From IMG/VR virus record IMGVR_UViG_3300020050_014713, positions 19,713 to 83,712 of that record: DNA of 64,000 nt. The stretch is one strand, 5' to 3'. The position numbers were made by a program, and so were the translations under genes. Origin of the DNA: a virus (taxonomy: Duplodnaviria; Caudoviricetes). Below, piece after piece: positions 1-56,592 of this stretch (its first letter is position 1; each line of letters opens with the position of its first letter). The notes beneath the pieces were generated by a model. The model worked only from the letters and a program-made list of their open reading frames with translations. It made no database searches and was not told the DNA's origin.

Positions 1-4
1 AACC

Positions 5-15
5 ATAGTTAGAAA
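5..15 (-). promoter_or_regulatory. TTTCTAACTAT motif, copy 1 (putative phage late promoter core), pointing out of the window
   Basis: atagttagaaa at 5-15 is the reverse complement of the motif found upstream of three plus-strand structural units; 14 nt (GTTTCTAACTATGG) are identical to the copy at 27282. Confidence 0.45.
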
Positions 16-129
16 CTCAACTATTGATTTTTGGCGTTAGATAACAATCATATAGTTTTTATATACACAATCTTACCTATTGTTGCGGTGTGACTATTCT
101 GTTAACATGGGACTAGCCCAAGACTTCAC

Positions 130-714
130 TTGGGACACAAAGGGACTATTGTGATTGGATGTAAACCCCTAACCCCTACTGAAGTAGCTGATATCACTAA
201 GCATCTAAGCTGTGCTAGGGATAAGTGTTTGTTTATATTGGGATTGCGTACGGGATTGCGTATAAGTGAATTGCTATCGCTGAAAGTCTCTAATGTGTTT
301 TCAACGGGTTCTCTAATGCAATGTATTTATATTGAACGTAGGAATACAAAGGGTAAAACTGCTGGACGATCTATAGCGTTGCACAACGATGCAAGAGAGG
401 CTATAGCTAGTCTACTAGCAACTTGGGACCATAGTCCAGGGGACTGGCTATTCCAATCGTTTAGAACGCCTAATAAGCCCTTAGATCGGGTTATGGCGTA
501 CAGGATGCTACGAGAGGCTACGGATAAGGCTAAAATAGCTGGTAAAGTAGCTACGCATAGTATGCGCAAGACCTTTGCCGAACGGATGTACACTAAGCTG
601 GATAAGGATCTACTTAAGTTACAGAAGGCTTTGGGGCATAGGGACGTTAACAGTACTATAGCCTATCTATCGTTCAATCAACAGGATATTGACGATGCAA
701 TCTTAAGTGACTAA
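130..714 (+). CDS. int: Tyrosine recombinase/integrase, catalytic domain only (194 aa)
   Basis: Complete R-K-H-R-H-Y set: GLRISELLSL, NTKGK, HSMRK, LGH, TIAYL. Confidence 0.9.
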   Translation: MGHKGTIVIGCKPLTPTEVADITKHLSCARDKCLFILGLRTGLRISELLSLKVSNVFSTGSLMQCIYIERRNTKGKTAGRSIALHNDAREAIASLLATWDHSPGDWLFQSFRTPNKPLDRVMAYRMLREATDKAKIAGKVATHSMRKTFAERMYTKLDKDLLKLQKALGHRDVNSTIAYLSFNQQDIDDAILSD

Positions 715-24493: not shown

Positions 24494-26113
24494 TTAAATA
24501 CCACAAACTCCATTTAAACACTCTTTCTCTTTTTCCTCAAAAACAACCCCTTCATTCTTTAAAGCTTCTTCGAGAGAAACTTTTGTTAAAGGCTGACCTC
24601 CCCTGCATCCATCCGGATACATAGTAAATCCGCGAAGACGTTTTGCGTATTTGAGTAGTATCTTAGAATTCTCTTTCATAGTTTTTTCGTTGTTGTTTTC
24701 AGTTCCCCAGGCATCAATATTACAAGTAGAACTAATTGCCATATCTACATAATTCTGCACATCGGCTTGAAACTTTACTCGTTGTTTAAATGATAAATCA
24801 TATGAATCTTGGATATTTTCAATTTTAACGCCAGCTTCTAATAGGCGTTTTACAGAACCGTCAACAACGTATTGATAGTGCCATTTATTATCTTTAAAAT
24901 AGCGGCGTTTATATGCTTTGCAAAATAGAGGTTCAATTCCGGTAGTAGTCTCTGCTAAAATTCCAATGGTTCCTGTTGGAGCAATAGCCCTAACTCCTTT
25001 TGGAATGGAAACTCCGAGAGTTCTGGCAGTAACGAATGCCGTACTATCCGACTCCTGTTCCCACACTGAAAGCCATTTATGTAGTTCTGGGGTTACTTCA
25101 TAAGGCATTCCTCGCATCATTAACCATTCGTGAATACCTCCTAAACCTAGTCCAATGCGGTTATTTTTATTACCCACTTCTTTAATTTTTTCGGTAGGTA
25201 CGTCGGAGTACATCCCTCCACACATTAGCAACATTGTTCCGTACTTTGTAACATGTCTAAGTTCTTTAGTGTCTTTAATTCTGTTAAGCCAAACAGTGCC
25301 TAAGTTACACTTGTCACTATCATCTTCGCTGGTCACTTCCGTACAAGCGTTTCGCAACGTCTCGTTATCTTTACGAAAATTAAAACTAAATCCTGGTTCA
25401 GCAGTTGAGAATGCCTGAAGGCAGTTAAGATTCCAAACTTTTAATGCGTGCTCATGAAGTTCGTGATTTTTATTTTCAATAGCAATAAAAAATTCAGTAT
25501 CGTAGTTAACAGAAATGTTAGTAAGTTCCATGGGCATTGGAAAATTAATATCTTTTTCTTTTAGAGCTTTGAGTTCTGGAGAATGATTTTTAAGATTTAG
25601 AAATTTAAATACATCATCATGTTTCCAATTTAGTGATGCGTAAATTGCACTGCGTCGCTGACCACCTTGCATAATATATCGCCCAGCTTCGTTAATCATA
25701 TTAATTAGTGCAATTGGACCCGTACTAGTCCCACCGGTTTTTACAATTTTAGCGCCCTCAGGACGAAGCATACTATAGTCAAAGCCAATCCCGCCGCCGG
25801 TCATAAGAGCCATCGTAGCCTTAAATACAGCATCTGCCCAAGCTTCTCGACTATCTTCTGCTCTAAACAAAAAACAATTATTTACTTGGTGAAATGGACG
25901 ACCAGATGCATATAGATACCTACCGCCGGGGATGAATTGTCGTTTTAGCATAATTTGATAGATGCACTCTTGATCTTCTTTTGAAAGAATTTGTCCGCAT
26001 ACAGCAGTTACAACACGACGACAAAGATCCGCCCAAGTTTCAACACCGTCCATTGAATATTTTTGTAGGAAAATATCTTGAGCAAATTTATTTGAGAAAA
26101 CATCGTATTTCAT
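24494..26113 (-). CDS. nrdJ: Ribonucleotide reductase, class II (B12-dependent) type
   Basis: PGGR, NNCF, NACTE (NPCxE-equivalent), CNLG, APTGTI, C-terminal CLNGVC redox pair; no beta-subunit gene nearby. Confidence 0.85.
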   Translation of the reverse strand: MKYDVFSNKFAQDIFLQKYSMDGVETWADLCRRVVTAVCGQILSKEDQECIYQIMLKRQFIPGGRYLYASGRPFHQVNNCFLFRAEDSREAWADAVFKATMALMTGGGIGFDYSMLRPEGAKIVKTGGTSTGPIALINMINEAGRYIMQGGQRRSAIYASLNWKHDDVFKFLNLKNHSPELKALKEKDINFPMPMELTNISVNYDTEFFIAIENKNHELHEHALKVWNLNCLQAFSTAEPGFSFNFRKDNETLRNACTEVTSEDDSDKCNLGTVWLNRIKDTKELRHVTKYGTMLLMCGGMYSDVPTEKIKEVGNKNNRIGLGLGGIHEWLMMRGMPYEVTPELHKWLSVWEQESDSTAFVTARTLGVSIPKGVRAIAPTGTIGILAETTTGIEPLFCKAYKRRYFKDNKWHYQYVVDGSVKRLLEAGVKIENIQDSYDLSFKQRVKFQADVQNYVDMAISSTCNIDAWGTENNNEKTMKENSKILLKYAKRLRGFTMYPDGCRGGQPLTKVSLEEALKNEGVVFEEKEKECLNGVCGI

Positions 26114-34957: not shown

Positions 34958-37675
34958 ATGGCTAATAAATTTTGGGGATTTTTTAAAGGCGTTCTTCTTA
35001 GAAAAGAAGCTTCTGCCGTTTCGTATGCTGCTGAAAACGAAGGTGCAATATATAACAACAATAACCTTGAGCTTCGTACTCAGCTTGCTGGTGCTGATAG
35101 GGAAATTGTAACTGAAGACCAGACACAAACCCTTACTAACAAAACTATCAATGCTGATTCCAATACCATTACCAATATTGAAAACGCTGATATTAAAGCT
35201 GGCGCTGCTATTGATGCTTCTAAAATTGCTGATGGTAGCGTTTCTAATACCGAATTCCAATATCTTGCTAACGTAACAAGCGATATTCAATCTCAATTTT
35301 CTGGAACTGCAAGCGCTGCCGACGTAGCAGATTTAGTTACTTTAAGTGGCGTAGCTTCTGGTAGTGAAGATTTAGGTACCTTTACCGGAGCAACAATCCC
35401 AGACAATTCAGATAACAAAGAAGCTTTTCAAGCCCTAGAAACAGCCCACGAAGCCCACGTAAATGACTCTTCTGCCGCACACGCAGCTTCTGCGGTATCC
35501 AACACCCCATCTGGCAACCTAGCTGCTACAGACGTTCAGGGAGCTTTAAACGAGCTTCAGTCAGATGTTGACACCAGGGCTACTAGCTCCGCTCTAACCA
35601 CCCATACCGGAGCTTCTACTGGAGTTCATGGAGTAACTGGTTCAGTAGTGGGTACGTCTGATACTCAAACTTTATCTGCCAAAACTTTCTCAGACGCCGT
35701 TACCTTGGCAGAAATTTCTACTCCTACTACACCCTCTTCAGGCTTTGGTAAAGTATATTTTAAAGCTGATGGAAGCTTGTATCAACTAAGTGATAGTGGT
35801 GCAGAAACTAAAGTTGGTTCTGGTTCAGGGTCTAAAAATTATATTTCAAATTTTGATGCCGCTCAGGGTACTACTGGCTATGCCACTTATGCTGACGCTG
35901 CTGGAACTAGTCCTGTAGATGGAACTGGCGGTAGCCCTAGCGTAACCTTTGCTGCAAATACCTCCTCTCCTCTTTCTGGGGCTGCAGATTTCTTATTTAC
36001 TAAAGATGCTGCAAATAGACAAGGTCAGGGTGTAAGTTACGCTTTTACAATTGATAATGCCGACCGTGCTAGTGTTCTTCGCATTGCTTTTGACTATTCA
36101 ACTTCTGCCAGTTTTGCAGACGCTGATATGCGAATGTATATCTACGATGTAACTAACTCCCGTCTAATTGAAGGTGTTCCTGTTGAAATTGGTGCCAATG
36201 CTCAAGGACATTTTGCTTCTGAATTTCAAACAAGTCCTGATAGCACTAGCTACCGTTTAATTTTTCACGTAGCTTCTACCAACGCTTCAGCTTATACATT
36301 AAATTTTGACAACGTTGTTGTTGGTCCACAATCAGTTGTTAAAGGACCAATTGTTACAGATTGGGTTTCCTTTACTCCCACTGGTGGGTTTTCTACTAAC
36401 TCTACATATACTGGAAAATATCGAAGAGTAGGAGATAATTTAGAAGTTTCTGCAAAAATTGCTTTTTCTGGAGCACCTAACAGCACCGACTGTACCTTTA
36501 ACTTACCAAGCGGTTTATCAATTGATTCTAATAAAGTTTTAAGCACAACTCCACAAAGTGCTAATTTTGGTACTGGTAACATATTTGATACTAGTGCTGG
36601 ATTTAACTATGTAGCGCAAGTAACGTACCATTCGTCTACTGCTATACGATTAAGGGGCGGAAACGGATCTAGTAACGTTTCTGATACAAGTCCGATAACT
36701 TTTGCAAACGGCGATACTATTGAAGTTATTTTTAGAGTGCCTATTTCTGGATGGTCTTCTAACCAAGTTCTTTCTCAAGATAATGGACAAAGAGTCGTAT
36801 CATTTAGTGCTCGCAGAAGTTCTTCAGATCAATCAATTACCACTGCTACTGAAACTAAAGTACAATTTAACTCAGTCTCCTTTGATTCTACCAATTCATT
36901 TAGTACTTCCACGTATAGATTTACTGCTCCTGAAAATGGATTTTATTTTTTAAGTGCAACTTGCCAAATTAATAACTCTACTCAAGATACTCTCAATAGT
37001 ATTAGAATTAAAAAGAATGGTACAACAGACTTAGTGGTAAAAAACGAGGATAAGGCATATGCTAGTTTTTATGCTTCTGCAAATGCCGTAGATCAAGCTA
37101 TTAAAGGGGATTATTACGAAGTTTACATGCTAAGTAACGACACTTCTTATGAAGTTGTAAATTCTGTATCATCATTTTTTTCCGGATTTAAAATCCAATC
37201 TGCACAACAAATTGCCGCAAGTGAGGTAATTGCTTGTTCTTATGAAACTAATGCTGGACAAGCAGTTGCAAACAATACTGTTACACTTGTAACCTATGAA
37301 GATAAATCTTTTGATACTCATAATATCTATAATACATCTACTGGAGAAGGCACGGTTCCAGTGTCTGGAAAATATACGCTTAGTGCAAGTGTTTATTATG
37401 ATGGATCTACTGACTGGGCTGTCGGCGAATCTGCAAATATCAGACTAGAAATAGATAGAGGTTCTGGTTTTAATACAGAGGCGGGAGTTGAATTGTTTCC
37501 GCCTACTGCATCATCTGCGGTAGGATTATCTATTGGAGCAAATAAAGTATTTGATTTAGTAAAGGGTAATAAATTTAGAATTAGAACGTATCAGGTTTCC
37601 GGAAATAGTAGAAACCTAATTGCAGTTGCTGCATTTAATTATATGTCTTTTGCTAGAGTTGGAGGAGTTGAATAA
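34958..37675 (+). CDS. Tail fibre / receptor-binding protein (905 aa)
   Basis: QTLTNKT repeats, Ser/Thr/Gly-rich, C-terminal C1q-like beta domains. Confidence 0.8.
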   Translation: MANKFWGFFKGVLLRKEASAVSYAAENEGAIYNNNNLELRTQLAGADREIVTEDQTQTLTNKTINADSNTITNIENADIKAGAAIDASKIADGSVSNTEFQYLANVTSDIQSQFSGTASAADVADLVTLSGVASGSEDLGTFTGATIPDNSDNKEAFQALETAHEAHVNDSSAAHAASAVSNTPSGNLAATDVQGALNELQSDVDTRATSSALTTHTGASTGVHGVTGSVVGTSDTQTLSAKTFSDAVTLAEISTPTTPSSGFGKVYFKADGSLYQLSDSGAETKVGSGSGSKNYISNFDAAQGTTGYATYADAAGTSPVDGTGGSPSVTFAANTSSPLSGAADFLFTKDAANRQGQGVSYAFTIDNADRASVLRIAFDYSTSASFADADMRMYIYDVTNSRLIEGVPVEIGANAQGHFASEFQTSPDSTSYRLIFHVASTNASAYTLNFDNVVVGPQSVVKGPIVTDWVSFTPTGGFSTNSTYTGKYRRVGDNLEVSAKIAFSGAPNSTDCTFNLPSGLSIDSNKVLSTTPQSANFGTGNIFDTSAGFNYVAQVTYHSSTAIRLRGGNGSSNVSDTSPITFANGDTIEVIFRVPISGWSSNQVLSQDNGQRVVSFSARRSSSDQSITTATETKVQFNSVSFDSTNSFSTSTYRFTAPENGFYFLSATCQINNSTQDTLNSIRIKKNGTTDLVVKNEDKAYASFYASANAVDQAIKGDYYEVYMLSNDTSYEVVNSVSSFFSGFKIQSAQQIAASEVIACSYETNAGQAVANNTVTLVTYEDKSFDTHNIYNTSTGEGTVPVSGKYTLSASVYYDGSTDWAVGESANIRLEIDRGSGFNTEAGVELFPPTASSAVGLSIGANKVFDLVKGNKFRIRTYQVSGNSRNLIAVAAFNYMSFARVGGVE

Positions 37676-46598: not shown

Positions 46599-47765
46599 AT
46601 GGCAGGCAAAGCTCCATACTTAACTAGTACTACTTTCGTAGAATCAGTTCGGCGCAGATGTTCTTTGCCTGAATCAGATAGCTTATACTCTGAGGATGAT
46701 ATCCTAGAATTAGGCAACGATCAGATTCAAGAAACTCTAGTTCCTACCATTAAAGCAACTCAAGAAGAATACTTTGTTGCTCACAAACTAGTGCCAATTG
46801 AACCTGCAAAATCAAAGTATCCTATTCCAGAAAGGGCTGTAGCTAATCAGTTAAGAGCTTTGAGCTATATTGATAGCAGCAATCAGGAATATAGGCTTAC
46901 TAGGATTCAAAGAGAAGACAGGTACGATTTCCAATTTAACAGCGATCAGCCATATTGTTTTTTTATTGAAAACGACTCTGTTATTTTGTATCCAGAAATT
47001 GTTAGCGACGACGGCAGCTTAAAGTTTACATACCTACTAAGACCTAACAATTTAGTGTCTAGTAGTAGAGTGGGTAAAATCCAATCTACAAGTGAAGGGT
47101 TTGTTTTAGTTTCTTCTATATCGGTTGGAACTTCTACTACGTTTATAACTACAACTCCACACACTTTGTCTAGCGGCGAAACGGTCACTATTGGTTCGGT
47201 TACTGGAGCTAGCAACTCTTTACTAAATACCAGTCATGTAGTTACAGTTGTTGATAGCAATACCTTTACTGTGCCCGTGGATACTTCCGCACTTGGACCA
47301 TTCGCTGCAGGAGTTGTATACAATAATACAACTAATTATGTTTTAAACAACCTCCCCACTATTTTTTCAACTGCAGATACTATTGATTTTCTAAAGAGTA
47401 AATCTCCACATAATACATTGTCAATTGATGTATATCCAAAAGTTTTAAATTTTATTACAAAAACTATAAACTTTAAAAACTCCGATATCCCAGATACTTT
47501 GGAGCTTGGAGACACTGTAGCTTTATCATACGAAACAGACATTCCTGGGGTGCCAACAGAACTTCATAGGCACTTAGTTACTCTTACTTGCGAATTGGTT
47601 CTAGAGGGCATTAAAGATGCTCAGGGACTTGGCTTTGCTAAAGCAAGGTCTGCTCAATCAAAACAAAACGCTGAAATTTTAATCGAGAATAGGGTAACTG
47701 GTTCTCCTTTAAAAATTAAACCTAGTTTCGGTCTTCTAAAAGGAAATCGAAGAAAGAGGTTCTAA
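46599..47765 (+). CDS. Head-tail adaptor (T7 gp11/P22 gp4-like) with FCCH-like insert
   Basis: N-terminal helix bundle, KYPIP, IPGVPTELH; position before the nozzle. Confidence 0.65.
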   Translation: MAGKAPYLTSTTFVESVRRRCSLPESDSLYSEDDILELGNDQIQETLVPTIKATQEEYFVAHKLVPIEPAKSKYPIPERAVANQLRALSYIDSSNQEYRLTRIQREDRYDFQFNSDQPYCFFIENDSVILYPEIVSDDGSLKFTYLLRPNNLVSSSRVGKIQSTSEGFVLVSSISVGTSTTFITTTPHTLSSGETVTIGSVTGASNSLLNTSHVVTVVDSNTFTVPVDTSALGPFAAGVVYNNTTNYVLNNLPTIFSTADTIDFLKSKSPHNTLSIDVYPKVLNFITKTINFKNSDIPDTLELGDTVALSYETDIPGVPTELHRHLVTLTCELVLEGIKDAQGLGFAKARSAQSKQNAEILIENRVTGSPLKIKPSFGLLKGNRRKRF

Positions 47766-50700
47766 GTGCCGCAACAAATAGTAAACCTAAAGATTGCAGG
47801 TTTAAATACTAATGCTCAGTATATCGGAGAAGTGCCTCCCGGCGCTCTTCTAGAGGCTTCCAATTTTAACCATGATAGATTGGGAATACTTGAGAAACGT
47901 CGTGGATTCTTTTTGTACGGTGATTTACTATCTAGTTCTTCTTATAGAGTAAAAGAGTTATTTACTTACAAAGAAAGAATTTTTCGCCACTACGAAACTA
48001 AGTTAGATTGGGACAACGGTAGCGGAACTTTTACTCAGTTTTCTGGCGACTACACAGAACCTGAATCTGCTAGACTAAGAATCAAAACTCAAGAAAGTAA
48101 TGGCAATTTATACATTACTACTAATAAAGGCATTAAAAAACTTAGTGCTAATAGTTCTGCAGATTTTACTAATGGAATTACTGACGCTGGTGGAAAAAAT
48201 GCTCTCAATCTTAAAGCTAGTGCCAATTATGTTAATGCTGGGTTTTTACCTGCACTGTCTAAAGTTGCGTACACAGTTACTTGGGCGTATAAAGACCTAA
48301 ATAACAATCTAATAATTGGCAAACCAAGTTCCACTGCAATTGTTTCTAATACTTCAGAAACTAATAGCTGTACTGTAGATTTAACTTTTCAAATACCTGA
48401 TGACATAACATCAGACTACTTTTACCAAGTTTACCGCAGTGCTTTTGTAACTACTACCGATATAAATGAATTAGCTGACCTAGTTCCAGAAGCTGAATTT
48501 TTTCTAGTTATTGAAGATTTTCCAGCTACTCTTACTGGAACTGTAACTATTAACGATATTACTCCAGAAGATTTTAGAATTGGAGCTACTCCACTATATA
48601 CCAATCCAATTTCTGGAGAAGGTATCCTACAGGCTAATGAAATTCCTCCCATTGCAAATGACATTACCTTATATAAAAATTACATGTTCTTTGGTAACAC
48701 AAAGACTAAATACAAACTAACTTCCTCTTTACTTAGCACTGATTCGTTTGTGTCTAGTGACACTAAACTTGTAGTAACCACTGGGGATACTACAGAAACT
48801 TATACTTTTGTTGGTCAAGAGGCTGAATCCACCATAGTATTTGCCACTGCCAACTACGCTTCTAAAGCTGCTTTAAAAGGAACCTACTTTCTATTGCGAT
48901 CAGCGTCTAATGAAATTGTAGCCTTTGTGTGGTTTGACGACGATGGAACTACAACCGAACCATCCAACGCAGAAACTTCCGGCAAGATGGGAGTTAAGGT
49001 TGATTTGTCTTCTCTTGGCGCTACTCCTACAAATGAACAAATAGTAGATGAGGTTATCTCAACTCTACTAAATAGCCTATACTTTACTGGATCTAAAACC
49101 GGAACTGGCATTAACGTTACTCTTACTATAGCAAACGATTTTAACGGAAACACCAGTCCCTGGCACCTTCAGAATAGTTCTACTGTTCCTGTTCCAGCTC
49201 CTGCTGGCGGTACCATTACTTTTAATGATCAGGTAGTGGCTGGTGATGGAGAAGATGCTGCTTTAAAACATATCCTACTATCTTCTAAGCCTACTCCAGG
49301 TCAAAGAGTAGAAGAAACCGCTCAGTCTATTGTAGAAATAATTAATGCTCAGGCTGGCGGGCTTTTAATTGCAACTTATACTTCTGGACTAGGTGAAATT
49401 CCCGGTCAAATGCTTTTAGAAACTCGTACTATTACCGGAACTGCATTTTATATTGGCATTGAAGAAACTACCCCTGGCGCAAATACAAAATTTAATCCAC
49501 AACTTCCAAGCATTAAATCGGTATCTAGTTATACACAAGCCAATCCTGCGGTACTAACAGTTCCAACTCACGGCTATTCTACTGGAAATAGCGTAGTGCT
49601 ATTTAATACATCCGGAGATAGTCCTAATATTGATGGCAAAAGAACCATCACAGTACTATCCGCAAATACTTTTTCTATTCCTGTTAATACTTCTGTAGGT
49701 TCTCTGGGAACTGGCACTAAGGTTATGTTGGCTTCTAGTGCAGCCGACAATGAAGTTAATCCCAATAGGATCTTCTTTAGTAAGCTACAGCAGCCGGAAG
49801 CTGTTCCTATCGTAAACTTTTTTGATGTTGGAAGAAAAGATAAAGTAATCCAGCGTATTATAGCTTTACGAGACAGTTTATTTATTTTTAAAGAAGATGG
49901 CATTTTCAGATTGTCCGGGGAAGCTCCGCAAAACTTTTCAATTGCATTATTTGATCCTACAAATATTATGCTTTCTCCTGACACCGGATCTATTCTCAGC
50001 AATGAAATTTGCGCACTGACTAATAGGGGCGTAGTAGTAGTTTCTGATACTGGTGTTCAGACCATATCAAAACCTATTGAAAACTTGCTAAATAAAGCAA
50101 TTCTAAACGCAGCATTTAAAAGACAGTCGTTTGCAGTATCTAGTGAAAACGACAGGTCATACCATTTATTTATTACCGAAAAAACTACAGACACCGTAGC
50201 CACTCAATGTTTTAGGTATAATAATGACACTAGTAGTTGGACTAAATGGTCTGTGTCAAAAACCTGTGGAGTATTAAATTCTTCAGATGACAAGATTTAT
50301 CTTGGTGCTGCTGACACAAATCAAATAGAAAAAGAAAGAAAAACTTTAGATAGAACTGACCATGTGGACCGAGAGTTTACTGTTCAGATTAATGCTGGCG
50401 GTATTGCTAACAATATTGTGTCTAGCTTATCCACTCTTACAAATGTTGAAATTGGAGATGTTCTATTTCAACAACAATACCTAACCATTGCTCAAACTAA
50501 TATTTTATTGCGTAAATTAGATTTAGACTTGCTTCTAGACAAGCCCATTACTACCATTACAACAGGAGTAGCTACTACTTTTGCTGTTACAGGGCACGGG
50601 TTAGTTACTGGAGAGTACGCTCTACTTACTGGAATAACAGGAACTGGAGCAGATGTTTTAAACGGTATTCATCAAGTAATTGTATTGGATGCTAATACTT

Positions 50701-51518
50701 TTACCATTGCCATCAATAGTCAAATTTATACAGCATTTGGCGGTAAAGCTAAATATTCCTTCAATTCTAACTTAGAAGCCGTTGCTGGTATAAATATTAT
50801 TAATAAGCTGGCATCTATTTGCACTAAATTACAGCTATTTCTTACAGATTCCTTTTCCGATTCTAATAGCTATACTGGGTTTTATGGAAACGGAAGTGGA
50901 TTTATTTACGACACCAGCAATCCTCCAAATGATTGGGTAGAAGCTCAGACCGTATTTAATTTTGCAATGGATAGATTAAATGAATCTTCTGAGGTTCAAT
51001 TTACAAATTATAGGTATTCTGACGATACATCAAACTTTGAGCAGCTAATTGTTGATAAAGATGCCACTGCAATGGTAGTAACTCTTTCTGGAAGTCCTTT
51101 ATTCCTAGAAGGCGACACTACTGTATACAAGGGAATTAACTCCCTAGTTACTTGGGTTCCAAATCCCTCTGGAGATCCTAGCGTTTTGAAACATGCGTCC
51201 AGTGCGACAGTTATTTTTGATAATCAAGGGTTTTCTGGCGGGGAAATACGGTATTCCAGCGATTTGAGTAAAGGATTTGATGGTAGAGAGTTTGTTGCTG
51301 AAGGAACTGGTATTTTTGGTCAGAATGGGTTTGGGGAAGAAGGTTTTGGGGGTGTATCCTCTAGTGAACCTGTAAGAACTTTAGTTCCTCGTAATAAAGC
51401 TATGCATAGGTACATTTCATGCCAATTTAGGCATTTAAACGCCCGAGAAGCGGTTTACATCTTCGGCATGTCTCTTACCATAGAGATGGTGTCTGAGAGG
51501 GCTTATAAGGGCAAATAA
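47766..51518 (+). CDS. Tail nozzle / tubular protein B (T7 gp12/P22 gp10-like), 1250 aa
   Basis: Beta-propeller-like repeats, NRIFFSK, LFIFKEDGIF, WTKW; two FCCH-like inserts. Confidence 0.75.
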   Translation: MPQQIVNLKIAGLNTNAQYIGEVPPGALLEASNFNHDRLGILEKRRGFFLYGDLLSSSSYRVKELFTYKERIFRHYETKLDWDNGSGTFTQFSGDYTEPESARLRIKTQESNGNLYITTNKGIKKLSANSSADFTNGITDAGGKNALNLKASANYVNAGFLPALSKVAYTVTWAYKDLNNNLIIGKPSSTAIVSNTSETNSCTVDLTFQIPDDITSDYFYQVYRSAFVTTTDINELADLVPEAEFFLVIEDFPATLTGTVTINDITPEDFRIGATPLYTNPISGEGILQANEIPPIANDITLYKNYMFFGNTKTKYKLTSSLLSTDSFVSSDTKLVVTTGDTTETYTFVGQEAESTIVFATANYASKAALKGTYFLLRSASNEIVAFVWFDDDGTTTEPSNAETSGKMGVKVDLSSLGATPTNEQIVDEVISTLLNSLYFTGSKTGTGINVTLTIANDFNGNTSPWHLQNSSTVPVPAPAGGTITFNDQVVAGDGEDAALKHILLSSKPTPGQRVEETAQSIVEIINAQAGGLLIATYTSGLGEIPGQMLLETRTITGTAFYIGIEETTPGANTKFNPQLPSIKSVSSYTQANPAVLTVPTHGYSTGNSVVLFNTSGDSPNIDGKRTITVLSANTFSIPVNTSVGSLGTGTKVMLASSAADNEVNPNRIFFSKLQQPEAVPIVNFFDVGRKDKVIQRIIALRDSLFIFKEDGIFRLSGEAPQNFSIALFDPTNIMLSPDTGSILSNEICALTNRGVVVVSDTGVQTISKPIENLLNKAILNAAFKRQSFAVSSENDRSYHLFITEKTTDTVATQCFRYNNDTSSWTKWSVSKTCGVLNSSDDKIYLGAADTNQIEKERKTLDRTDHVDREFTVQINAGGIANNIVSSLSTLTNVEIGDVLFQQQYLTIAQTNILLRKLDLDLLLDKPITTITTGVATTFAVTGHGLVTGEYALLTGITGTGADVLNGIHQVIVLDANTFTIAINSQIYTAFGGKAKYSFNSNLEAVAGINIINKLASICTKLQLFLTDSFSDSNSYTGFYGNGSGFIYDTSNPPNDWVEAQTVFNFAMDRLNESSEVQFTNYRYSDDTSNFEQLIVDKDATAMVVTLSGSPLFLEGDTTVYKGINSLVTWVPNPSGDPSVLKHASSATVIFDNQGFSGGEIRYSSDLSKGFDGREFVAEGTGIFGQNGFGEEGFGGVSSSEPVRTLVPRNKAMHRYISCQFRHLNAREAVYIFGMSLTIEMVSERAYKGK

Positions 51519-51537: not shown

Positions 51538-51810
51538 ATGGACAGCATGTTGGCTAAAAAACGAATGGAAGAGGGTACCTTGGACGATGAAGGTACAATT
51601 GGGGTACTTCCTGGGGAAGAAGATTCTAGTAAAAAGAGTAAATTTTTAGAAGTACTCGGTAAGTTTGGAAGTGGTATGGCGGATAGTGGTGCTTCTGCAA
51701 TGCCAAAACAACTCGATACATCTATGAATTTACAAGGATTTGCCAACCAGCAAGCTGCTCCTATGCAATCTAAGTATATGAATTTGCGCAAGCTATACGG
51801 ACTTGAATGA
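51538..51810 (+). CDS. Hypothetical virion-module protein
   Basis: GAGG RBS; packed. Confidence 0.6.
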   Translation: MDSMLAKKRMEEGTLDDEGTIGVLPGEEDSSKKSKFLEVLGKFGSGMADSGASAMPKQLDTSMNLQGFANQQAAPMQSKYMNLRKLYGLE

Positions 51811-52436
51811 AAATAAGTGGTAGTAGGCGTCTATTAAAGGAAGACTTCAGGTCCGAAGACCAAGAATTAGTTGGAAGGATTGGTTTTGCCTTAAATCCAC
51901 TACTTGAGCAACTTTATCTTATTTTTAACAAGAGAATTACAATTGGAGATAACCTAGACCAGGAATTTCGAGAAGTTACTCTAGAGGTTGATCAACTAGG
52001 CGCTCCAGTAAACCAGATTCTTTTAAAATCTCCTATTAGTAAAATCAATGCTATACAAGTTGCCGACTATAAAATAGCTTCAGCTTCCCAAGCCATTGCA
52101 ATAAGTTCAATAGCTGCAGGAGATTCATCCATTGTTACAACTACGCAACCCCATGGATTTACTAGCGGACAATACGTTACATTAGGTTCAACAAATAGTA
52201 CTCCAAATATTAACGGAAGCTTTAAAATTACTGTAAAAAATGATACAATGTTTGAAGTTCCCAAGCTTACTACTGTAAGCGGAAGTGCTGGAAATGTCGT
52301 TAGTTTAGATAGTTCTATCATGTCTTTTCCATTTGTTACGTTTAGGCAAGATGGCACTACTACTAAAATTTTACAGATTACTGGGCTAAATCCAAATACT
52401 AAGTATAAACTTAAATTTTGGATAATTGGACAATAA
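51807..52436 (+). CDS. Tail-associated protein with FCCH-like insert
   Basis: TQPHGFTSGQYVTL...NINGSFKIT. Confidence 0.7.
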   Translation: MKISGSRRLLKEDFRSEDQELVGRIGFALNPLLEQLYLIFNKRITIGDNLDQEFREVTLEVDQLGAPVNQILLKSPISKINAIQVADYKIASASQAIAISSIAAGDSSIVTTTQPHGFTSGQYVTLGSTNSTPNINGSFKITVKNDTMFEVPKLTTVSGSAGNVVSLDSSIMSFPFVTFRQDGTTTKILQITGLNPNTKYKLKFWIIGQ

Positions 52437-54519
52437 GGATTCTAACTGTATAAGTATGGATTATTTAAACGACGAAGAAAAAAAGAAACAACAGCAACAA
52501 GGACAGGTTTCTGCTCCAAGTGGTCAAGTTGTTACAGGTCAACCTGTTCAAGGTCAATCCGTACAAGCTCCTGCTGACAACGCAAATAAAGTTGCCGGTA
52601 GTGGAAGGTTCCAGAATCTACAGAAATTTATTGGAGCTAATCAAGGCGCTGGACAACAACTTGGTAGTAAGATTAGCCAAGACATTACAAAAAATCAACA
52701 AAACGTTCAAAATAAAATTGATACTCAACAGCAAAATATTAAAAATGCAGTTGAGGCTGAAAAAACTAGAATGCAGAGTGCTCAGGGTCTAGTTACTCAA
52801 GCAACTCAAGACGCGTCTACTTTCTTAGGCAATGATCAAAATAAACAACAATTACAATCTGCTCTTAGCGGACAGTATCAACAACAAGAAGTTAACAACC
52901 TTCCAGAACTTCAGCAAAATCTACAAGGACTACAGCAAAAAGCTGCGCAGGTAGGTTCTGAGGGTGGAAGATTTGATTTGCTTCGTCAAAATTTTGGTTT
53001 GCCATCTTATAGCCGTGGTGCTGCACGCCTAGATCAGCTACTACTACAGACTGCGCCAGATGCTCTAAACCAAATTAGCTCTACTGCACAAAAAACATCT
53101 CAGCAGCAAACTGCGCTTTCTGGACTACAGGATTTAACTACAGCTAGCAATACTGACTTAAATGCACTAGCCACTTCTACTGCCGACAGTCTAAATTCTA
53201 CCTTAATGGGAGATATTACTAATAAACGCGGAGCTATTGGACAACGTGCTCAAGACGCACTTACTGGGTTACAAGGTAAAAAAACTGCCATTGAAGAGAA
53301 GCTTAAAACCGCTACAGCACTATCTTCAGAAGAAATGGATGCTCTTGGTATTCCAGCAGCACAACGCACAGTATTCAATGAACTAGTGTCTTTGCGTGGA
53401 CCTGAAATTCTAAATCGTATTACAGTCCAAAATGCAGATAATACTAAATATGATATTACTGGAGATGCTTTAAGTTCTTATCAGAAAGCAAACTTATTAG
53501 ATCGTGTAAATAATGGCGTAATTTCTGAAATGGAATATCGTCGCGATCCACGTCTACAGATGGCACAATACTTAAAAGATATTGATGCTAGCCAGTTTAA
53601 CGAACAGAATGCTGTTAGTGCTGATGAAATGGAAGACATTAACATGCTCAATCAATTGTTGGGCAAAGGCGACGTATATCAGAAACCTGGTAGTTTACCG
53701 GGCACTTTGGGATATGACTACAGCACTGCCATTGGCAGAGGTCTTTCTGACATTGCTCCACAGTATACTTATGGAGAACAGACTGGAGAGTTTACCGATC
53801 AGGCTACTGGCAGTACCTTTGGGTCTTTATTGCCAGCTCTAATGGCTAATCCAGAAGCTGCTGCTCTTTATGGTCTAAATCCCATGGTAACTAGTAGTAT
53901 GTTAGGTGCAGATGTTGCAAATACTGCTGTAGTACAACCAGCATTAAATACCATAAATAGTGTAGCCAACATGGCACCGGCTCCTCTAAGAATAGCTGCT
54001 GCCGCTCCTTTGGAGCTTAGTAGAGTTGCTGCTAACGTTGCTTCCGATGTTGCAAGCAAAGCTGCTAAGACAGTCTCTAATGCTGTGTCGTCTATCTTCT
54101 GTTTTGCCAAAGATACTATGGTTGAAATGGCAGATGGTACAGAAAAAGCTATTCAAGATATCAAGCTTGGGGATGTTGTTGCCCTTGGTGGACGAGTAGT
54201 AGCTCACGGTAGCGGCTATTGTGATAGTATTTACGACTATAAAGGAATTAAAGCTTCTGAAAGTCACACTGTCTATCATTATGGCGAATTTATGCGTTTA
54301 AAAAATTGTCCGGACGCTAAATTCTATACCAATGAAGAAACTGTTGTTTATCCAATTTGTACCGAAAGGCATTTGATAGTTTCTAATGCTAAAATCTTTA
54401 CCGATACATACGAACATGATGATCAAGATTTAACTTACGAAGAAATTATCTATGAACTTAATAGCGATCACAAAAAGATTATCTTAGTAGAAGATTACCT
54501 ATATAAGAGAACTCGATGA
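52426..54519 (+). CDS. Putative internal virion/ejection protein with C-terminal Hint domain
   Basis: Gln/Ala-rich helical body; Hint begins at C559 (CFAKDTMVEMADG). Confidence 0.8.
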   Translation: MDNKDSNCISMDYLNDEEKKKQQQQGQVSAPSGQVVTGQPVQGQSVQAPADNANKVAGSGRFQNLQKFIGANQGAGQQLGSKISQDITKNQQNVQNKIDTQQQNIKNAVEAEKTRMQSAQGLVTQATQDASTFLGNDQNKQQLQSALSGQYQQQEVNNLPELQQNLQGLQQKAAQVGSEGGRFDLLRQNFGLPSYSRGAARLDQLLLQTAPDALNQISSTAQKTSQQQTALSGLQDLTTASNTDLNALATSTADSLNSTLMGDITNKRGAIGQRAQDALTGLQGKKTAIEEKLKTATALSSEEMDALGIPAAQRTVFNELVSLRGPEILNRITVQNADNTKYDITGDALSSYQKANLLDRVNNGVISEMEYRRDPRLQMAQYLKDIDASQFNEQNAVSADEMEDINMLNQLLGKGDVYQKPGSLPGTLGYDYSTAIGRGLSDIAPQYTYGEQTGEFTDQATGSTFGSLLPALMANPEAAALYGLNPMVTSSMLGADVANTAVVQPALNTINSVANMAPAPLRIAAAAPLELSRVAANVASDVASKAAKTVSNAVSSIFCFAKDTMVEMADGTEKAIQDIKLGDVVALGGRVVAHGSGYCDSIYDYKGIKASESHTVYHYGEFMRLKNCPDAKFYTNEETVVYPICTERHLIVSNAKIFTDTYEHDDQDLTYEEIIYELNSDHKKIILVEDYLYKRTR
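54100..54405 (+). other. Hint (Hedgehog/intein) domain 1
   Basis: Block A CFAKDT-V-MADG...IKLGD, block B SESH, block F VYPICTE, ends FTD with no His-Asn. Confidence 0.85.
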
Positions 54520-54944
54520 TGCTTATTAGAGGCTATAAACCGGAAGATTATTCCACTCTTTGTAAGTGGTTTGATGCCATTCAATGGTCACACTGGGATG
54601 AAAAACTTATCTCTCCTTATTCCTATATTATTTCTTACAATGATCAAGATGTTGCTTTTTCTAGTTACTTTAAACTTGAAGGTACAGTTGGTTCTATTTT
54701 AGGATTTACAATAGCTGATAGTACATTTAGAGAAGATGTAAGATCTGAATGTTTGGATGCTCTGTTGAATCATGTATTTAAAGAAGCTAAGAATAATGGT
54801 GTGCAGTACATGCACTACTACACTGATAGTAAATCTATGGTTAAAAGGCTAAGTGACCGTCATGATATGACCATTACAGATAACGGGGACGCCTATATCC
54901 TATTAAAAGTATTTGGTGCTGATGGTAGGTTTTTAAATGAATAA
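54516..54944 (+). CDS. GNAT-fold acetyltransferase-like protein
   Basis: IRGYKPEDY start; beta-alpha pattern ...LDALLNHVFKEAKNNG. Confidence 0.65.
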   Translation: MMLIRGYKPEDYSTLCKWFDAIQWSHWDEKLISPYSYIISYNDQDVAFSSYFKLEGTVGSILGFTIADSTFREDVRSECLDALLNHVFKEAKNNGVQYMHYYTDSKSMVKRLSDRHDMTITDNGDAYILLKVFGADGRFLNE

Positions 54945-55284
54945 CATGTGGTGTAATTATATTAAGGAACGTCTAGGACATGAATCTGTCTACAATGAAA
55001 GTGGTTTTCTTACTTATACTTCTTCACCTAATTCAGTTCTTATTCTAGATGCTTATGTCGTTCCGGAAAAAAGAAATAGCGGTGTTATGCAGGAACTATT
55101 TAACGACGTATTTGTAAAAGCTGTAGAATCTAATAAAGATAATTTGTACGCATCAGTAGCACCAAACGAACAGCTTAAAAATACAAATACTGCAGCCCTA
55201 AAGTTTTTATTAAAAAATGGGTTTCAGTTACTAAAAGCTGATAATAAAAATGTATTTTTTGTCAAAAATTTGAAGGATAAATAA
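54937..55284 (+). CDS. GNAT-fold acetyltransferase
   Basis: Motif A YVVPEKRNSG; FLLKNGF. Confidence 0.8.
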   Translation: MNNMWCNYIKERLGHESVYNESGFLTYTSSPNSVLILDAYVVPEKRNSGVMQELFNDVFVKAVESNKDNLYASVAPNEQLKNTNTAALKFLLKNGFQLLKADNKNVFFVKNLKDK

Positions 55285-56592
55285 ATGGGTATTATTAAGG
55301 ATACATTAGGTTCAGTAGGTATTGGTAAGACCAGTTGGCAAGAAACGGCTGAAAAGGGTGGGGCGCAGTTTGACCGAGCTTTAGCTGAGTTACAAAAGCT
55401 TGGCATTCCTACTGTAGAAGCTCAGCGTATTATCCTAGAATCTCCAGAACTTGTTGGGGAATTGGTTCCAGAGCTTGAAGGTTTTGCTGAACAATTGGAC
55501 CCTTCTGCTATGGAAGGAGTGGCTGCTCCTGAAGAACTTAAAGCTGCTCAAATGGGAGCTTTGAATACTTTATTAGCCCAATCTGAAGCTGGTGGACTTA
55601 CTCCAGAAGATGAGGCTGAACTTAATGACATTATGCGAGAAGCTGCTGGAGTTGGTCAATCTAGAGATGCAGCTATTCTACAAAACATGGCTGAACGTGG
55701 AGTAGCTGGTAGCGGTATGGAACTTGCTACTAGGCTTAAAAGTAGCCAGGATGCTCAACAACAAGCTGCTAAACAAGCTGAAGCTAGAGCAGCAATGGCA
55801 TTTGCAAATAAACAAAGTGCTTTGGATAAAATTGCTAATCTTTCTGGTCAAATGCGTACTCAAGACGTTGGAGAGCAAACTCAAAAAGCTCAAGCCGCTG
55901 ATTTAATTAATCAATTTAATTTACAACAACGTGCTGGTCAAACTCAAAGAGACTTAGATAGAAAAAACCAAGCACAAGCTACTAATCTTGCAAATAAGCA
56001 ATCCATTGCAAATACTGCTACAAATACTCGAAATATGCAAGAGCAGTACAACAAAGAACTACTGCAACAACAGTATCAAAACCAGGTTCAAAAAGCTGGT
56101 GGTGCTGCCAGTGCTATGCAAGCCAAAGGAAATCTACTACAAAATCAAGCCCAATCTCAGCAAGCTGGATTTAATCAAATGGTTGGCGGCGGTATGCAAA
56201 TTGCCGGTGCTAAAATTCAGTTTGGTTGTTTTGGTCCTGGAGAAGCAATTGAAATGGCTGACGGCAGTTTAAAGGATATTGAAAAAATTAAAGTTGGCGA
56301 CGAAGTAGCTCTTGGTGGAAAAGTTTTGGGTACTAGCCAAAGTCAAGTAGATCCATCTGAAATTTACAACTACATGGGAATTGTAGTAACTAAAGACCAC
56401 ATGGTTGAAGAAGATGGCGTTTTCTTGCCAGTAGAAAAAGCAAAATACTCAGTTCCTTTTAAATCAAATATTTCAAAAGTTTACAACATTTCTACTGAGA
56501 ATCAGCGCATTGTAAGTAATGGTGTTGTGTTTGGCGACTCAGAAATGATTAAAGCCTACGAACTAAGTAAATCGTTCCACGAGGGTGAATAA
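55285..56592 (+). CDS. Putative internal virion/ejection protein with C-terminal Hint domain
   Basis: Ala/Gln-rich body, RGVAGSG motif; Hint begins at C315 (CFGPGEAIEMADG). Confidence 0.8.
   Translation: MGIIKDTLGSVGIGKTSWQETAEKGGAQFDRALAELQKLGIPTVEAQRIILESPELVGELVPELEGFAEQLDPSAMEGVAAPEELKAAQMGALNTLLAQSEAGGLTPEDEAELNDIMREAAGVGQSRDAAILQNMAERGVAGSGMELATRLKSSQDAQQQAAKQAEARAAMAFANKQSALDKIANLSGQMRTQDVGEQTQKAQAADLINQFNLQQRAGQTQRDLDRKNQAQATNLANKQSIANTATNTRNMQEQYNKELLQQQYQNQVQKAGGAASAMQAKGNLLQNQAQSQQAGFNQMVGGGMQIAGAKIQFGCFGPGEAIEMADGSLKDIEKIKVGDEVALGGKVLGTSQSQVDPSEIYNYMGIVVTKDHMVEEDGVFLPVEKAKYSVPFKSNISKVYNISTENQRIVSNGVVFGDSEMIKAYELSKSFHEGE
56227..56538 (+). other. Hint domain 2
   Basis: Block A CFGPGE-I-MADG...IKVGD, block B TKDH, block F VYNISTE, ends FGD. 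Confidence 0.88.

Follow-up and report, generated by a model that had tools for sequence, protein, structure and literature searches.

Viral Hint caps with a GNAT-fold partner gene on probable internal proteins of a marine phage: a candidate self-cleaving cassette

Results

Gene context of the two Hint-capped ORFs

The window, i.e. the whole stretch of 64,000 nucleotides that was analysed, belongs to an uncultured marine phage with a complete genome of 83.7 kb and an SU10-type adaptor (features in Table 1). Two of its proteins, ORF A and ORF B, end in a Hint module followed by a short tail, and the first-pass annotation had placed both modules correctly, with their Cys1, block-B His, F-T/G-D ends and tails of 37 and 17 residues. 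The ATG at 52456, for a protein of 687 aa, is likely the true start of ORF A, since it agrees with the orthologue P0005. The body of ORF A is rich in Q, A and L and gave zero matches in Pfam and PHROG, and that of ORF B is A/Q-rich and probably a coiled coil. In five related phage lineages, every orthologue of ORF A comes with the cassette; body orthologues of ORF B in loci L003, L016 and L017 (E 7e-11 to 5e-28) have neither Hint nor tail. The synteny of the 1,250-aa ORF is kept in L003, L015 and L016. The two large proteins encoded after ORF B in the same operon are without a Hint and are candidate internal or ejection proteins. It may be noted that in SU10 the ejection proteins gp20-24 are encoded after the nozzle and needle genes (PMC9509320). 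From this order and the SU10_adaptor match upstream, both Hint-capped ORFs probably encode internal or ejection proteins as well, judging by gene position and synteny alone. The name "ejection protein" given to them earlier therefore stands as far as the genes occupy the ejection slot of an SU10-type podovirus, but not as to homology, as no sequence homology of either ORF to characterised ejection proteins was detected.

Table 1. Positions of the adaptor, Hint-cap and GNAT-fold features and their neighbours in the window
Feature	Coordinates	Strand	Basis
SU10-type adaptor protein	46599..47765	+	Pfam SU10_adaptor, 29.4 bits against a cutoff of 27
1,250-aa tail protein, nozzle position	47766..51518	+	Assigned by position only
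ORF A, Hint-capped virion protein	52426..54519	+	697 aa from TTG start
ORF A Hint core, 102 aa	54100..54405	+	AF2 model and structural alignment
ORF A tail, 37 aa plus stop	54406..54519	+	AF2 model
GNAT1, divergent GNAT-fold protein, 142 aa, phrog_17252	54516..54944	+	AF2 (pLDDT 84.8), Foldseek
GNAT2, probable GNAT, 115 aa	54937..55284	+	Weak matches: Acetyltransf_7 (1.1e-3), PHROG acetyltransferases, PDB GNATs
ORF B, second Hint-capped protein, 435 aa	55285..56592	+	ORF call and family match
ORF B Hint core, 104 aa	56227..56538	+	Family HMM, E 1e-43
ORF B tail, truncated variant, 17 aa plus stop	56539..56592	+	Sequence
Two large proteins, 582 and 617 aa	56593..60181	+	phrog_5880 (function unknown)

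Structure and residues of the Hint modules

The ORF A module was modelled together with its tail by AF2 from a 40-sequence alignment (pLDDT 93.6, pTM 0.87), and the matches of Foldseek and VIA-align to this model were exclusively Hint-fold proteins. The top match was Tetrahymena BIL2 (6y75; Z 13.0, rmsd 1.9 Å over 112 residues; Foldseek E 5e-6), and many inteins aligned with Z of 10-12, so the check by structure prediction and Foldseek suggested earlier did recover the Hint fold. Model residues 11..112 span the inteins from residue 1 to the last (1..454 in PI-SceI, 1..440 in Mtu RecA), which places Cys1 and the terminal Asp exactly at the positions of the intein Cys1 and terminal Asn. The Pfam Hint search matched block A alone, at 23.4 and 16.4 bits, under the cutoff of 32.1; with Pfam alone the domain would have been missed. 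In ORF A, Cys1 (54100-54102) lies in the junction SIF/CF, block B reads S-E-S-H and the core ends in F-T-D (54397-54405, the Asp at 54403-54405), with Phe before Cys1 and Thr at +1 after the Asp. In ORF B the corresponding features are QFG/CF (Cys1 at 56227-56229), T-K-D-H and F-G-D (56530-56538, the Asp at 56536-56538), with Ser at +1 and S/E/A/E at this position in close homologues. Both modules are true Hint folds with the N-terminal catalytic pair intact, and, as paralogues with 38% identity over 105 aa (E 2e-19), they sit on bodies that are unlike, all as had been proposed. The tail of ORF A has an acidic start, TYEHDDQD, and continues as a predicted helical hairpin (model residues 123-132 and 134-148, pLDDT 92-95) with a family-conserved L-N. 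ORF B carries Glu in place of the conserved block-A Thr and a shortened tail without the +3 Glu, because of which its cap may be less active than the family norm; there is no GNAT1 of its own directly 3′.

A virus-specific family

The caps had been taken for an oddity of two proteins. Instead, they belong to a viral cassette, made up of Hint, tail and a partner gene for a GNAT-fold protein, that is widespread and sits on many unrelated virion-protein bodies. The family has 2,383 cluster representatives, which carry no annotation and of which every one examined is viral, and the exhaustive profile search returned 1,152 cluster representatives at E<=1e-10, so the match level is far above chance. 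The Hint caps are thus a large virus-specific family that is functionally undescribed; our literature search found no paper describing this Hint-cap/GNAT cassette. In every case the module stands C-terminally, its core followed by a tail of ~39 aa, and it is fused to at least 37 bodies unrelated by BLAST, which include Phage_lysozyme2 plus LysM, SLT and DUF4815. The members with SLT or tail-lysozyme domains are other than those of the window.

The family is marked by Cys1, a block-B [ST]-x-x-His, a terminal Asp and the tail, with a +1 residue that is no nucleophile. On counting residues over 168 modules, Cys1 was found in 151, the block-A Thr in 156 and the block-B His in 153, and the terminal Asp was present in 166 of 167. 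The residue before this Asp is Thr, Ala or Gly instead of His, so the family lacks the penultimate His by which cyclisation of the terminal residue is usually helped. The +1 residue is Tyr in 112 cases, Phe in 19 and Met in 10, and Gly precedes Cys1 in 81 of the 168, mostly behind a poly-Gly linker. The block-B His accompanies Cys1 in each of the 151 modules that have the latter, and is absent from all 15 with Gly at position 1, 13 of them retaining the Asp. Modules lacking both Cys1 and His (second copies in tandem proteins, and a 151-aa stand-alone ORF in L003) still keep the Asp, the aromatic +1 residue and the tail L-N. Such conservation suggests that the terminal Asp is probably functional.

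Linkage to a GNAT-fold gene

The ATG of GNAT1 overlaps the stop of ORF A (ATGA). The GNAT1 model had 486 GNAT matches in Foldseek, with Ard1, RimI and NAGS as the best (E 1.7e-7, TM ~0.7); the top ones are protein N-alpha-acetyltransferases. By inspection, the canonical CoA loop [QR]-x-x-G-x-[GA] was not seen in the GNAT1 family, which makes the enzymatic competence of GNAT1 uncertain. Among loci picked by short peptide patterns, which represent a few abundant groups of marine phages, a GNAT1-family ORF lies directly 3′ of the Hint-capped ORF in 84 of 93 cases (after dereplication, in 51 of 58 clusters drawn at 90% identity, and in 8 of 11 groups by body homology), and in the reverse test all 66 GNAT1 ORFs have a Hint-capped ORF in the same operon. 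The linkage suspected at first is thus very strong. The pair has three different settings: in the window it follows the nozzle region, in L006 the portal and in L014 the terminase. The GNAT is absent from giant-virus-like tandem members and from L017, and GNAT2 is limited to one lineage (window and L015). An Asp/Asn beta-hydroxylase and an SDR are found in the same operon in 27 loci. GNAT1 is most likely the dedicated functional partner of the Hint cassette.

Discussion

Self-cleavage as the favoured reading

On the conserved residues, we consider it fairly probable that the cassette works by thioester-mediated self-cleavage at X/Cys1, that is, by autoprocessing and not by splicing, with the GNAT protein as partner. 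Cys1 and the block-B His would bring about an N-to-S acyl shift at the preceding bond (F/C in ORF A, G/C in ORF B), and the thioester would then be resolved so that the cap separates from the body. The cassette would act with GNAT1, whose gene shares the operon in nearly all members examined. We infer that cleavage takes place from conserved residues only; any timing of it would be putative too. The invariant Asp and the tail would serve either in a C-terminal cleavage via Asp cyclisation, which Asp-terminated inteins do perform (PMC4031507), or as a structural or regulatory part. A Hint and GNAT cassette of this kind points to an unstudied route of maturing, or possibly of covalently attaching, phage particle proteins.

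The closest bacterial parallel is with the type A BIL domains (Amitai 2003; Dassa 2004; summarised in PMC4031507 and PMC7765530). These share the Hint fold (C. thermocellum BIL, PDB 2LWY; Z 11.7, rmsd 1.7 Å over 104 residues), Cys1 and the block-B His, an unconserved +1 nucleophile, hosts that are variable, non-conserved proteins, and an expected outcome of cleavage instead of splicing. In them cleavage occurs, and ligation is possible without a +1 nucleophile (PMC4031507); a Magnetospirillum BIL also has Tyr at +1 (PMC4031507, PMC7765530). The phage module differs in ending in [TAG]-Asp where BILs end in His-Asn, in a core of just ~102 aa, in its place at the extreme C-terminus followed by the conserved helical tail, and in being viral with a near-obligate GNAT-fold partner gene, whereas BILs are bacterial.

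Alternatives to simple self-cleavage

A two-component ligation, which we hold as a tentative possibility, would pass the C-terminal carboxyl of the body from the Hint thioester to a putative amine or hydroxyl acceptor, possibly a Lys of another virion protein, a host envelope lipid or peptidoglycan. The GNAT-fold partner could then catalyse or direct the acyl transfer, taking the protein thioester as donor instead of acyl-CoA. GNAT-fold enzymes typically transfer acyl groups from a thioester to an amine; the near-obligate operon link and the missing CoA-binding loop of GNAT1 fit a ligation, a partner would be superfluous for plain hydrolysis, and the Gly that often precedes Cys1 after a poly-Gly linker also favours it. 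There is a precedent in the nearest structural match, BIL2 of the Tetrahymena thermophila BUBL1 locus (PDB 6Y75/6TMM), which joins its N-extein to Lys side chains by an ATP-free isopeptide bond (PMC8616854). However, BIL2 has a terminal Asn143 and ubiquitin-like flanks and only 15-19% sequence identity to the phage module, and the conjugation belongs to BIL2 whereas the phage family is known here from sequence and models. Against ligation, the role of the GNAT could be an unrelated one, Phe rather than Gly precedes Cys1 in ORF A, and the giant-virus-like tandem members and L017 do without the gene. We know of no GNAT partner for BIL2.

It is a similarly tentative possibility that the module cleaves itself twice, the Asp cyclising and cutting D/Y besides the N-terminal cut, so that a predicted acidic peptide of ~39 aa is freed, which the GNAT may modify, joined in some lineages by the Asp/Asn hydroxylase and SDR. 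The invariant Asp at the intein terminal-Asn position, the conserved tail sequence, the survival of Asp, aromatic +1 and L-N where Cys1 and His are lost, the N-alpha-acetyltransferases as best matches of GNAT1 and the 27 operons with hydroxylase and SDR agree with this, as does the cyclisation known for Asp-ended inteins (PMC4031507). Yet the penultimate His is missing, the tail of ORF B is truncated and divergent, and the tail is modelled confidently inside the folded unit, which a purely structural role fits too. In the Asp/Gln-terminated inteins an Asp at G:7 is likewise able to cyclise and cut the downstream bond (PMC4031507), but the phage caps have neither a conserved +1 nucleophile nor a conserved host-protein insertion site, nor an intein-less allele joining the flanks.

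The persistence of modules without Cys1 and His, as tandem second copies or the stand-alone L003 ORF, with tail and Asp conserved independently of the nucleophile, would suit a catalytically inert cap in which Hint and tail form a structural or docking domain that remains attached, possibly for loading the GNAT or targeting the body into the procapsid. This is unlikely, since the co-variation of Cys1 and block-B His in 151 of 151 modules, both window modules included, is hard to account for without thioester chemistry.

That the caps are genuine mini-inteins, atypical in their C-terminal Asp, which use Ser/Thr at +1 to join the short tail to the body, is very improbable: Thr and Ser do stand at +1 in the window and inteins ending in Asp are known (PMC4031507), but the family has mostly Tyr/Phe there and close ORF B homologues S/E/A/E, the +1 residue is nucleophilic in just 6 of 25 ORF A-type representatives, three Hint-less ORF B body orthologues stop without the tail, and the module is always terminal, on unrelated bodies, without a homing endonuclease. 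A canonical splicing intein was rejected on the unconserved +1 nucleophile and the tail-less orthologues, in agreement with the first-pass annotation, whose argument that lack of a terminal Asn precludes splicing was too strong, as inteins ending in Asp or Gln cyclise and splice (PMC4031507).

Other systems that resemble the caps

The Hedgehog Hog domain (PDB 1AT0, Z 10.8) is also a C-terminal Hint on a cargo that does not splice, and a short extra region follows it at the sterol-recognition position. The tail had been likened to this adduct-recognition region; the same topological position and the predicted helices bear this out, but homology was not found. Hedgehog has no counterpart of the terminal Asp or of a GNAT partner, and a phage is unlikely to use its eukaryotic cholesterol chemistry. 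The Peptidase_S74 intramolecular chaperones of phage tailspikes and fibres are likewise C-terminal modules of virion proteins that remove themselves after their task, but with an unrelated fold and chemistry (a Ser-Lys dyad, as against the Cys thioester of the Hint caps).

Hint modules of ORF A and ORF B

The source record is 83,712 bp long, carries direct terminal repeats and is rated complete, and the window covers its bases 19713-83712. ORF A and ORF B are both open, and the coordinates and motifs that the first-pass annotation gave for a Hint module at the C-terminus of each were found to be correct (see table). It had also described the two Hints as alike and the rest of the proteins as unlike, and indeed paralogy is limited to the ~105 residues that precede the tails (38% identity, E 2e-19), the N-terminal bodies being unrelated. 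Against the Pfam Hint profile only the first 27 residues (block A) match, with 23.4 bits for ORF A and 16.4 bits for ORF B where the cutoff is 32.1, and neither ORF passes any of the Pfam Hint-clan models (Hint, Hom_end_hint, Hint_2, PT-HINT, Vint, Intein_splicing). As the scores are sub-threshold and confined to block A, the domain would escape automatic annotation.

With an alignment of 40 sequences as input, AlphaFold2 modelled the ORF A module and its tail with very high confidence (pLDDT 93.6, pTM 0.87). The model consists of an all-beta core followed by two helices in the tail (model residues 123-132 and 134-148). The Hint fold that had been read from the sequence is borne out by Foldseek, which matched the model to Hint-fold proteins exclusively (probability 1.00 to bacterial intein-like (BIL) domains, inteins, Vint and Hedgehog). 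The top match is the Tetrahymena Hint domain BIL2 (E 5e-6), and further matches include a C. thermocellum BIL domain, mini-inteins, Vint and Hedgehog. Using VIA-align, the model superposes on BIL2 (PDB 6y75) over 112 residues with a Z of 13.0 and an rmsd of 1.9 A. Dozens of inteins follow with Z of 10-12, and of the 70 chains with Z of at least 8, all those listed have the Hint fold. In these alignments model residues 11 to 112 correspond to the first to last residue of PI-SceI, Mtu RecA, gp41-1 and other inteins. Therefore Cys1 occupies the position of the intein Cys1 and the terminal Asp that of the intein terminal Asn.

Coordinates of the features discussed, in the window and on other viral contigs
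Feature	Sequence	Coordinates	Strand	Remark
Ribonucleotide reductase large subunit	window	24494-26113	-	phrog_84, E 8e-62
Structural protein	window	34958-37675		905 aa; C1q-like domain, 38.5 bits (cutoff 23.7)
Adaptor	window	46599-47765		SU10_adaptor
Large protein	window	47766-51518		1,250 aa
Small protein	window	51807-52436		209 aa
ORF A	window	52426-54519	+	
Hint core of ORF A	window	54100-54405	+	block B SESH; +1 Thr
GNAT1	window	54516-54944	+	142 aa
GNAT2	window	54937-55284	+	115 aa
ORF B	window	55285-56592	+	
Hint core of ORF B	window	56227-56538	+	block B TKDH; +1 Ser
Degenerate stand-alone Hint	L003	12463-12915		151 aa
Tandem Hint gene pair	L004	10001-12992		Tara Oceans scaffold
P0009-type tandem protein	L060	2437-2904		
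P0009-type tandem protein	L080	1179-1646		
Two ORFs between Hint gene and GNAT1	L135	2266-3484		

A viral family of C-terminal Hint caps

An exhaustive profile search over 1.84 billion representatives gave 2,383 proteins at E<=1e-3, of which 1,152 also pass E<=1e-10. In every one of the best 150 the module is C-terminal, or is a tandem repeat at that place, and it is followed by a short tail of 17-45 aa (median 39 aa). The core from Cys1 to the terminal Asp is 95-110 aa long (median 102), and together with the tail it forms what we call the cap or cassette. Among 168 modules, Cys1 is present in 151, the block-A Thr in 156 and the His of block B ([ST]-G-x-His) in 153, and the terminal Asp in 166 of 167. 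The first residue after this Asp (+1) is Tyr in 112, Phe in 19 and Met in 10 of the 168 modules, the +3 residue is Glu in 153, and the tail has a conserved L-N close to its end. It may be noted that the block-B His accompanies Cys1 in every one of its 151 occurrences. Gly takes position 1 in 15 modules, which are second copies in tandem proteins, and all 15 of them lack the His; thus Cys1 and the block-B His behave as a coupled catalytic pair. The Asp is kept in 13 of these 15, and the aromatic +1 residue and the tail motif in most. Since the Asp-and-tail element is retained in modules without Cys1 and His, it is conserved for a separate reason.

The bodies under the cap fall into at least 37 groups that are unrelated by BLAST. 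Some can be recognised as virion proteins, namely Phage_lysozyme2 with LysM, an SLT lytic transglycosylase and the giant structural proteins of the DUF4815/phrog_358 type. Of 40 family members compared with the Pfam Hint clan 30 match weakly, and the cutoffs are exceeded only by tandem members. NCBIfam gave no meaningful match. All members that could be placed are viral, from phage contigs and giant-virus-like contigs. Among the matches listed from 185,579 prokaryote species genomes, a single relative is full-length; it lies on a 15-kb contig in a marine Verrucomicrobia MAG, and this contig may be a binned phage; absence of the family from cellular genomes is thus only suggested. Also, by blastn and tblastn none of 50,697 deposited phage genomes matched the region, the ORF A module, a typical member of the family (P0086) or the 617-aa neighbour, so that at this sensitivity the family is not represented in cultured phages. 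In UniProt and BFVD some relatives in uncultured phages and giant viruses are labelled 'Hint domain containing protein', and hence the bare Hint domain in such viruses is already known at the annotation level.

Tandem and degenerate arrangements were also observed. In the P0009-type tandem proteins (P0006-P0014) the first, more divergent Hint ends in VVHN and the Cys1 of the Asp-type module lies two residues past it, and therefore a His-Asn-type and an Asp-type Hint stand back to back. Two Tara Oceans scaffolds (L004 and L005) have two adjacent genes, each with tandem Asp-type Hints of which the second copy is without Cys1 and His; the bodies are short and hydrophobic, and no GNAT1 partner is present there. 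Because an mRNA-capping enzyme fusion and FtsJ are also present, this contig is probably from a giant virus. The stand-alone degenerate Hint of L003 has neither Cys1 nor the block-B His and keeps the ..TTD-Y.. motif. It lies between a GNAT1 orthologue and a Hint-less ORF B orthologue, the place that GNAT2 takes in the window. A 45-kb ENA contig (L013) encodes cellular-type giant surface proteins of 2,780-3,469 aa with Peptidase_C25, PT-HINT and repeated partial Hint matches. Their similarity to the profile is confined to blocks A-B, and they do not belong to the family.

Comparison with inteins and other Hint classes

As inteins ending in Asp exist (PMC4031507) and the +1 residue in the window is Thr or Ser, we put the possibility that the modules are canonical inteins to test. 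In close homologues of ORF B the +1 residue is S, E, A and E, and in the ORF A-type clades a +1 nucleophile is found in only 6 of 25 representatives. Orthologues of the ORF B body in three related phages (L003, L016 and L017; E 7e-11 to 5e-28) have neither the Hint nor a tail-like end. No endonuclease or conserved insertion site was found, and the module is always terminal on its at least 37 unrelated bodies. From the variable +1 residue, the orthologues without Hint and tail and the lack of an endonuclease and insertion site, it follows that the cassette is an appended C-terminal unit and not an intervening sequence. The proposal of the first-pass annotation that these Hints do not splice agrees with the failure of these intein tests and also with the homologues, where the residue before the terminal Asp is Thr in 94 modules, Ala in 36, Arg in 14, Gly in 8 and never His. 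Release of a toxin, as by PT-HINT, is dismissed since the 17-45-aa tail is too short for a toxin and there is no PT-HINT match in Pfam.

Class 1 inteins have a conserved Cys/Ser/Thr at +1 and a His before the terminal residue, whereas the phage family has neither; they also lie within a conserved host protein whose flanks are contiguous in intein-less homologues, which is not so for the cassette. Type A BIL domains, which cleave autocatalytically at both their N- and C-terminal ends, finish in His-Asn and the phage module instead in [TAG]-Asp, but both are without a conserved +1 nucleophile and sit in variable, non-conserved proteins. Type B BIL domains match Hint_2 and have no block-G-like end, whereas ORF A and ORF B do not match Hint_2 and have a block-G-equivalent strand ending in Asp. 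In being an appended C-terminal unit, and presumably in its mode of autoprocessing, the cassette resembles type A BIL and Hedgehog domains. In the Hog part of Hedgehog the Hint is followed by the adduct (sterol) recognition region, which recruits the nucleophile; in position, the conserved tail of the phage proteins, predicted to be helical in ORF A, corresponds to it. We would class the cassette as a new family of the Hint superfamily. Its hallmarks are an end in Asp, a core that is very compact, a conserved tail predicted to be helical, hosts that are virion proteins and exclusively viral among the members placed, and a GNAT partner of its own.

The GNAT partner gene

The start of GNAT1 overlaps the stop of ORF A (ATGA). 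By sequence it has a weak match to phrog_17252 in PHROGs, and its profile gave only spurious CENP-N matches in the PDB, so that the GNAT fold is seen by structure only. The predicted structure (AF2, pLDDT 84.8) has 486 Foldseek matches in the PDB at E<=1e-3, with GNATs in all those listed and a TM of ~0.7. The top matches are the protein N-alpha-acetyltransferases Ard1 and RimI, NAGS and EctA. As modelled, GNAT1 has a clear GNAT fold. By inspection of the family consensus, the canonical CoA loop [QR]-x-x-G-x-[GA] after strand beta4, which binds the pyrophosphate of acetyl-CoA, is not visible. GNAT2 is probably a weaker, lineage-specific GNAT, judging from its sequence.

The linkage of the Hint cap with a GNAT gene, which the first-pass annotation had suggested surveying, proved strong both ways. 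For the forward test 80 were retrieved of 187 viral contigs that had been selected solely via Hint peptide patterns, and a GNAT1-family ORF lies directly 3′ of 84 of the 93 Hint-capped ORFs with enough downstream sequence. After dereplication it follows in 51 of 58 clusters (90% identity) and in 8 of 11 unrelated body groups. GNAT1 is not directly downstream in the giant-virus-like tandem proteins, in L017 or in ORF B-type proteins, where it lies two genes upstream. For the reverse test, loci were retrieved through one GNAT1 subgroup, and a Hint-capped ORF is the immediate upstream neighbour of 39 of its 66 GNAT1 ORFs. In the remaining 27 loci the Hint-capped ORF is likewise upstream and on the same strand but separated from GNAT1 by two small ORFs, and hence all 66 have a Hint-capped ORF in the same operon. 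The two intervening ORFs of L135 are an Asp/Asn beta-hydroxylase (PF05118, 43.4 bits) and a short-chain dehydrogenase (SDR, 31 bits). From the matching ORF sizes we infer the same pair in the remaining 26 loci, which are among L110-L165 and belong to one large phage group. This insertion between the Hint gene and GNAT1 is of note given that the Asp of the cassette is invariant and that its tail carries a conserved Asn. The Hint/GNAT1 pair lies after the nozzle region in the window, after the portal in L006 and after the terminase in L014, and so, being found in different gene neighbourhoods, travels as a unit. In the literature searched, we found no published description of a Hint-cap/GNAT cassette, and surveys of polyvalent proteins and of jumbo phages do not mention Hint caps.

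Proposed mechanism

The most likely course is an N-to-S acyl shift driven by Cys1 together with the block-B His, a reaction that we infer from the observed fold, register, conservation and coupled loss of Cys1 and His. The thioester would be resolved in such a way that the cap leaves the body, either by hydrolysis or by transfer to an amine in the manner of BIL2, which transfers its thioester acyl group to an amine (PMC8616854). Transfer becomes more probable in view of the near-obligate GNAT partner. As for the invariant Asp and the tail, they might bring about C-terminal cleavage via Asp cyclisation, as may be compared with Asp-type inteins and type A BIL domains; alternatively, they could act as a structural lid or recognition element. 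A more far-reaching reading, which we consider rather unlikely, is an ATP-independent, two-component viral ligation. Here the Hint would make a C-terminal thioester on a virion protein and the GNAT would move the acyl group to an amine of another virion protein, of a host envelope lipid or of peptidoglycan, covalently anchoring or cross-linking the DNA-delivery machinery, with the hydroxylase and the reductase added in some lineages.

Hint chemistry underlies inteins and Hedgehog lipidation and is widely used in protein engineering. As a natural Hint the phage cap is very compact (~102 aa); it terminates in Asp and is abundant in marine phages and giant-virus-like contigs. If it only cleaves itself, this would be an unrecognised, widespread and protease-free step in the maturation of ejection and fibre proteins of phages. 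Resolution of the thioester by the GNAT would instead amount to a new ATP-independent protein conjugation of obvious value as a ligation tool, and would explain how the DNA channel of some phages is fixed to the host envelope.

ORF A and ORF B in the phage genome

The portal of this phage is weakly P22/SU10-like and the adaptor is of the SU10 type above the Pfam cutoff; the nearest major capsid protein, from a Silvanigrella phage, is 29% identical. In SU10 five ejection proteins (gp20-24, with gp20 a transglycosylase) are encoded just 3′ of the nozzle and needle genes (PMC9509320). In the window, the adaptor is followed by the 1,250-aa protein, two small ORFs, ORF A, GNAT1, GNAT2, ORF B and proteins of 582 and 617 aa, an order kept in four related lineages (L003, L015, L016 and L017). 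By SU10 gene order, ORF A and ORF B are thus encoded 3′ of the adaptor as podovirus ejection proteins are, and their bodies are Q/A/G-rich. Neither ORF has a match in PHROGs, Pfam or the phage database or homology to characterised ejection proteins, and the ORF A body has no usable match in the ESM Atlas (best score 0.80). The label of ejection proteins used in the first-pass annotation thus stands as regards position downstream of an SU10-type adaptor and composition, but finds no counterpart in family matches or homology; from position and composition it is a reasonable one.

A small domain similar to Pfam E1_FCCH (E 4e-7 to 3e-5) occurs in the adaptor and in both the 1,250-aa and the 209-aa protein. 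It is also present in a Hint-capped DUF4815 protein (L076) and looks like a small beta-domain common to these tail proteins. Elsewhere in the window, the 905-aa structural protein has a C1q-like domain, and the ribonucleotide reductase large subunit lies in the oppositely oriented early/replication region.
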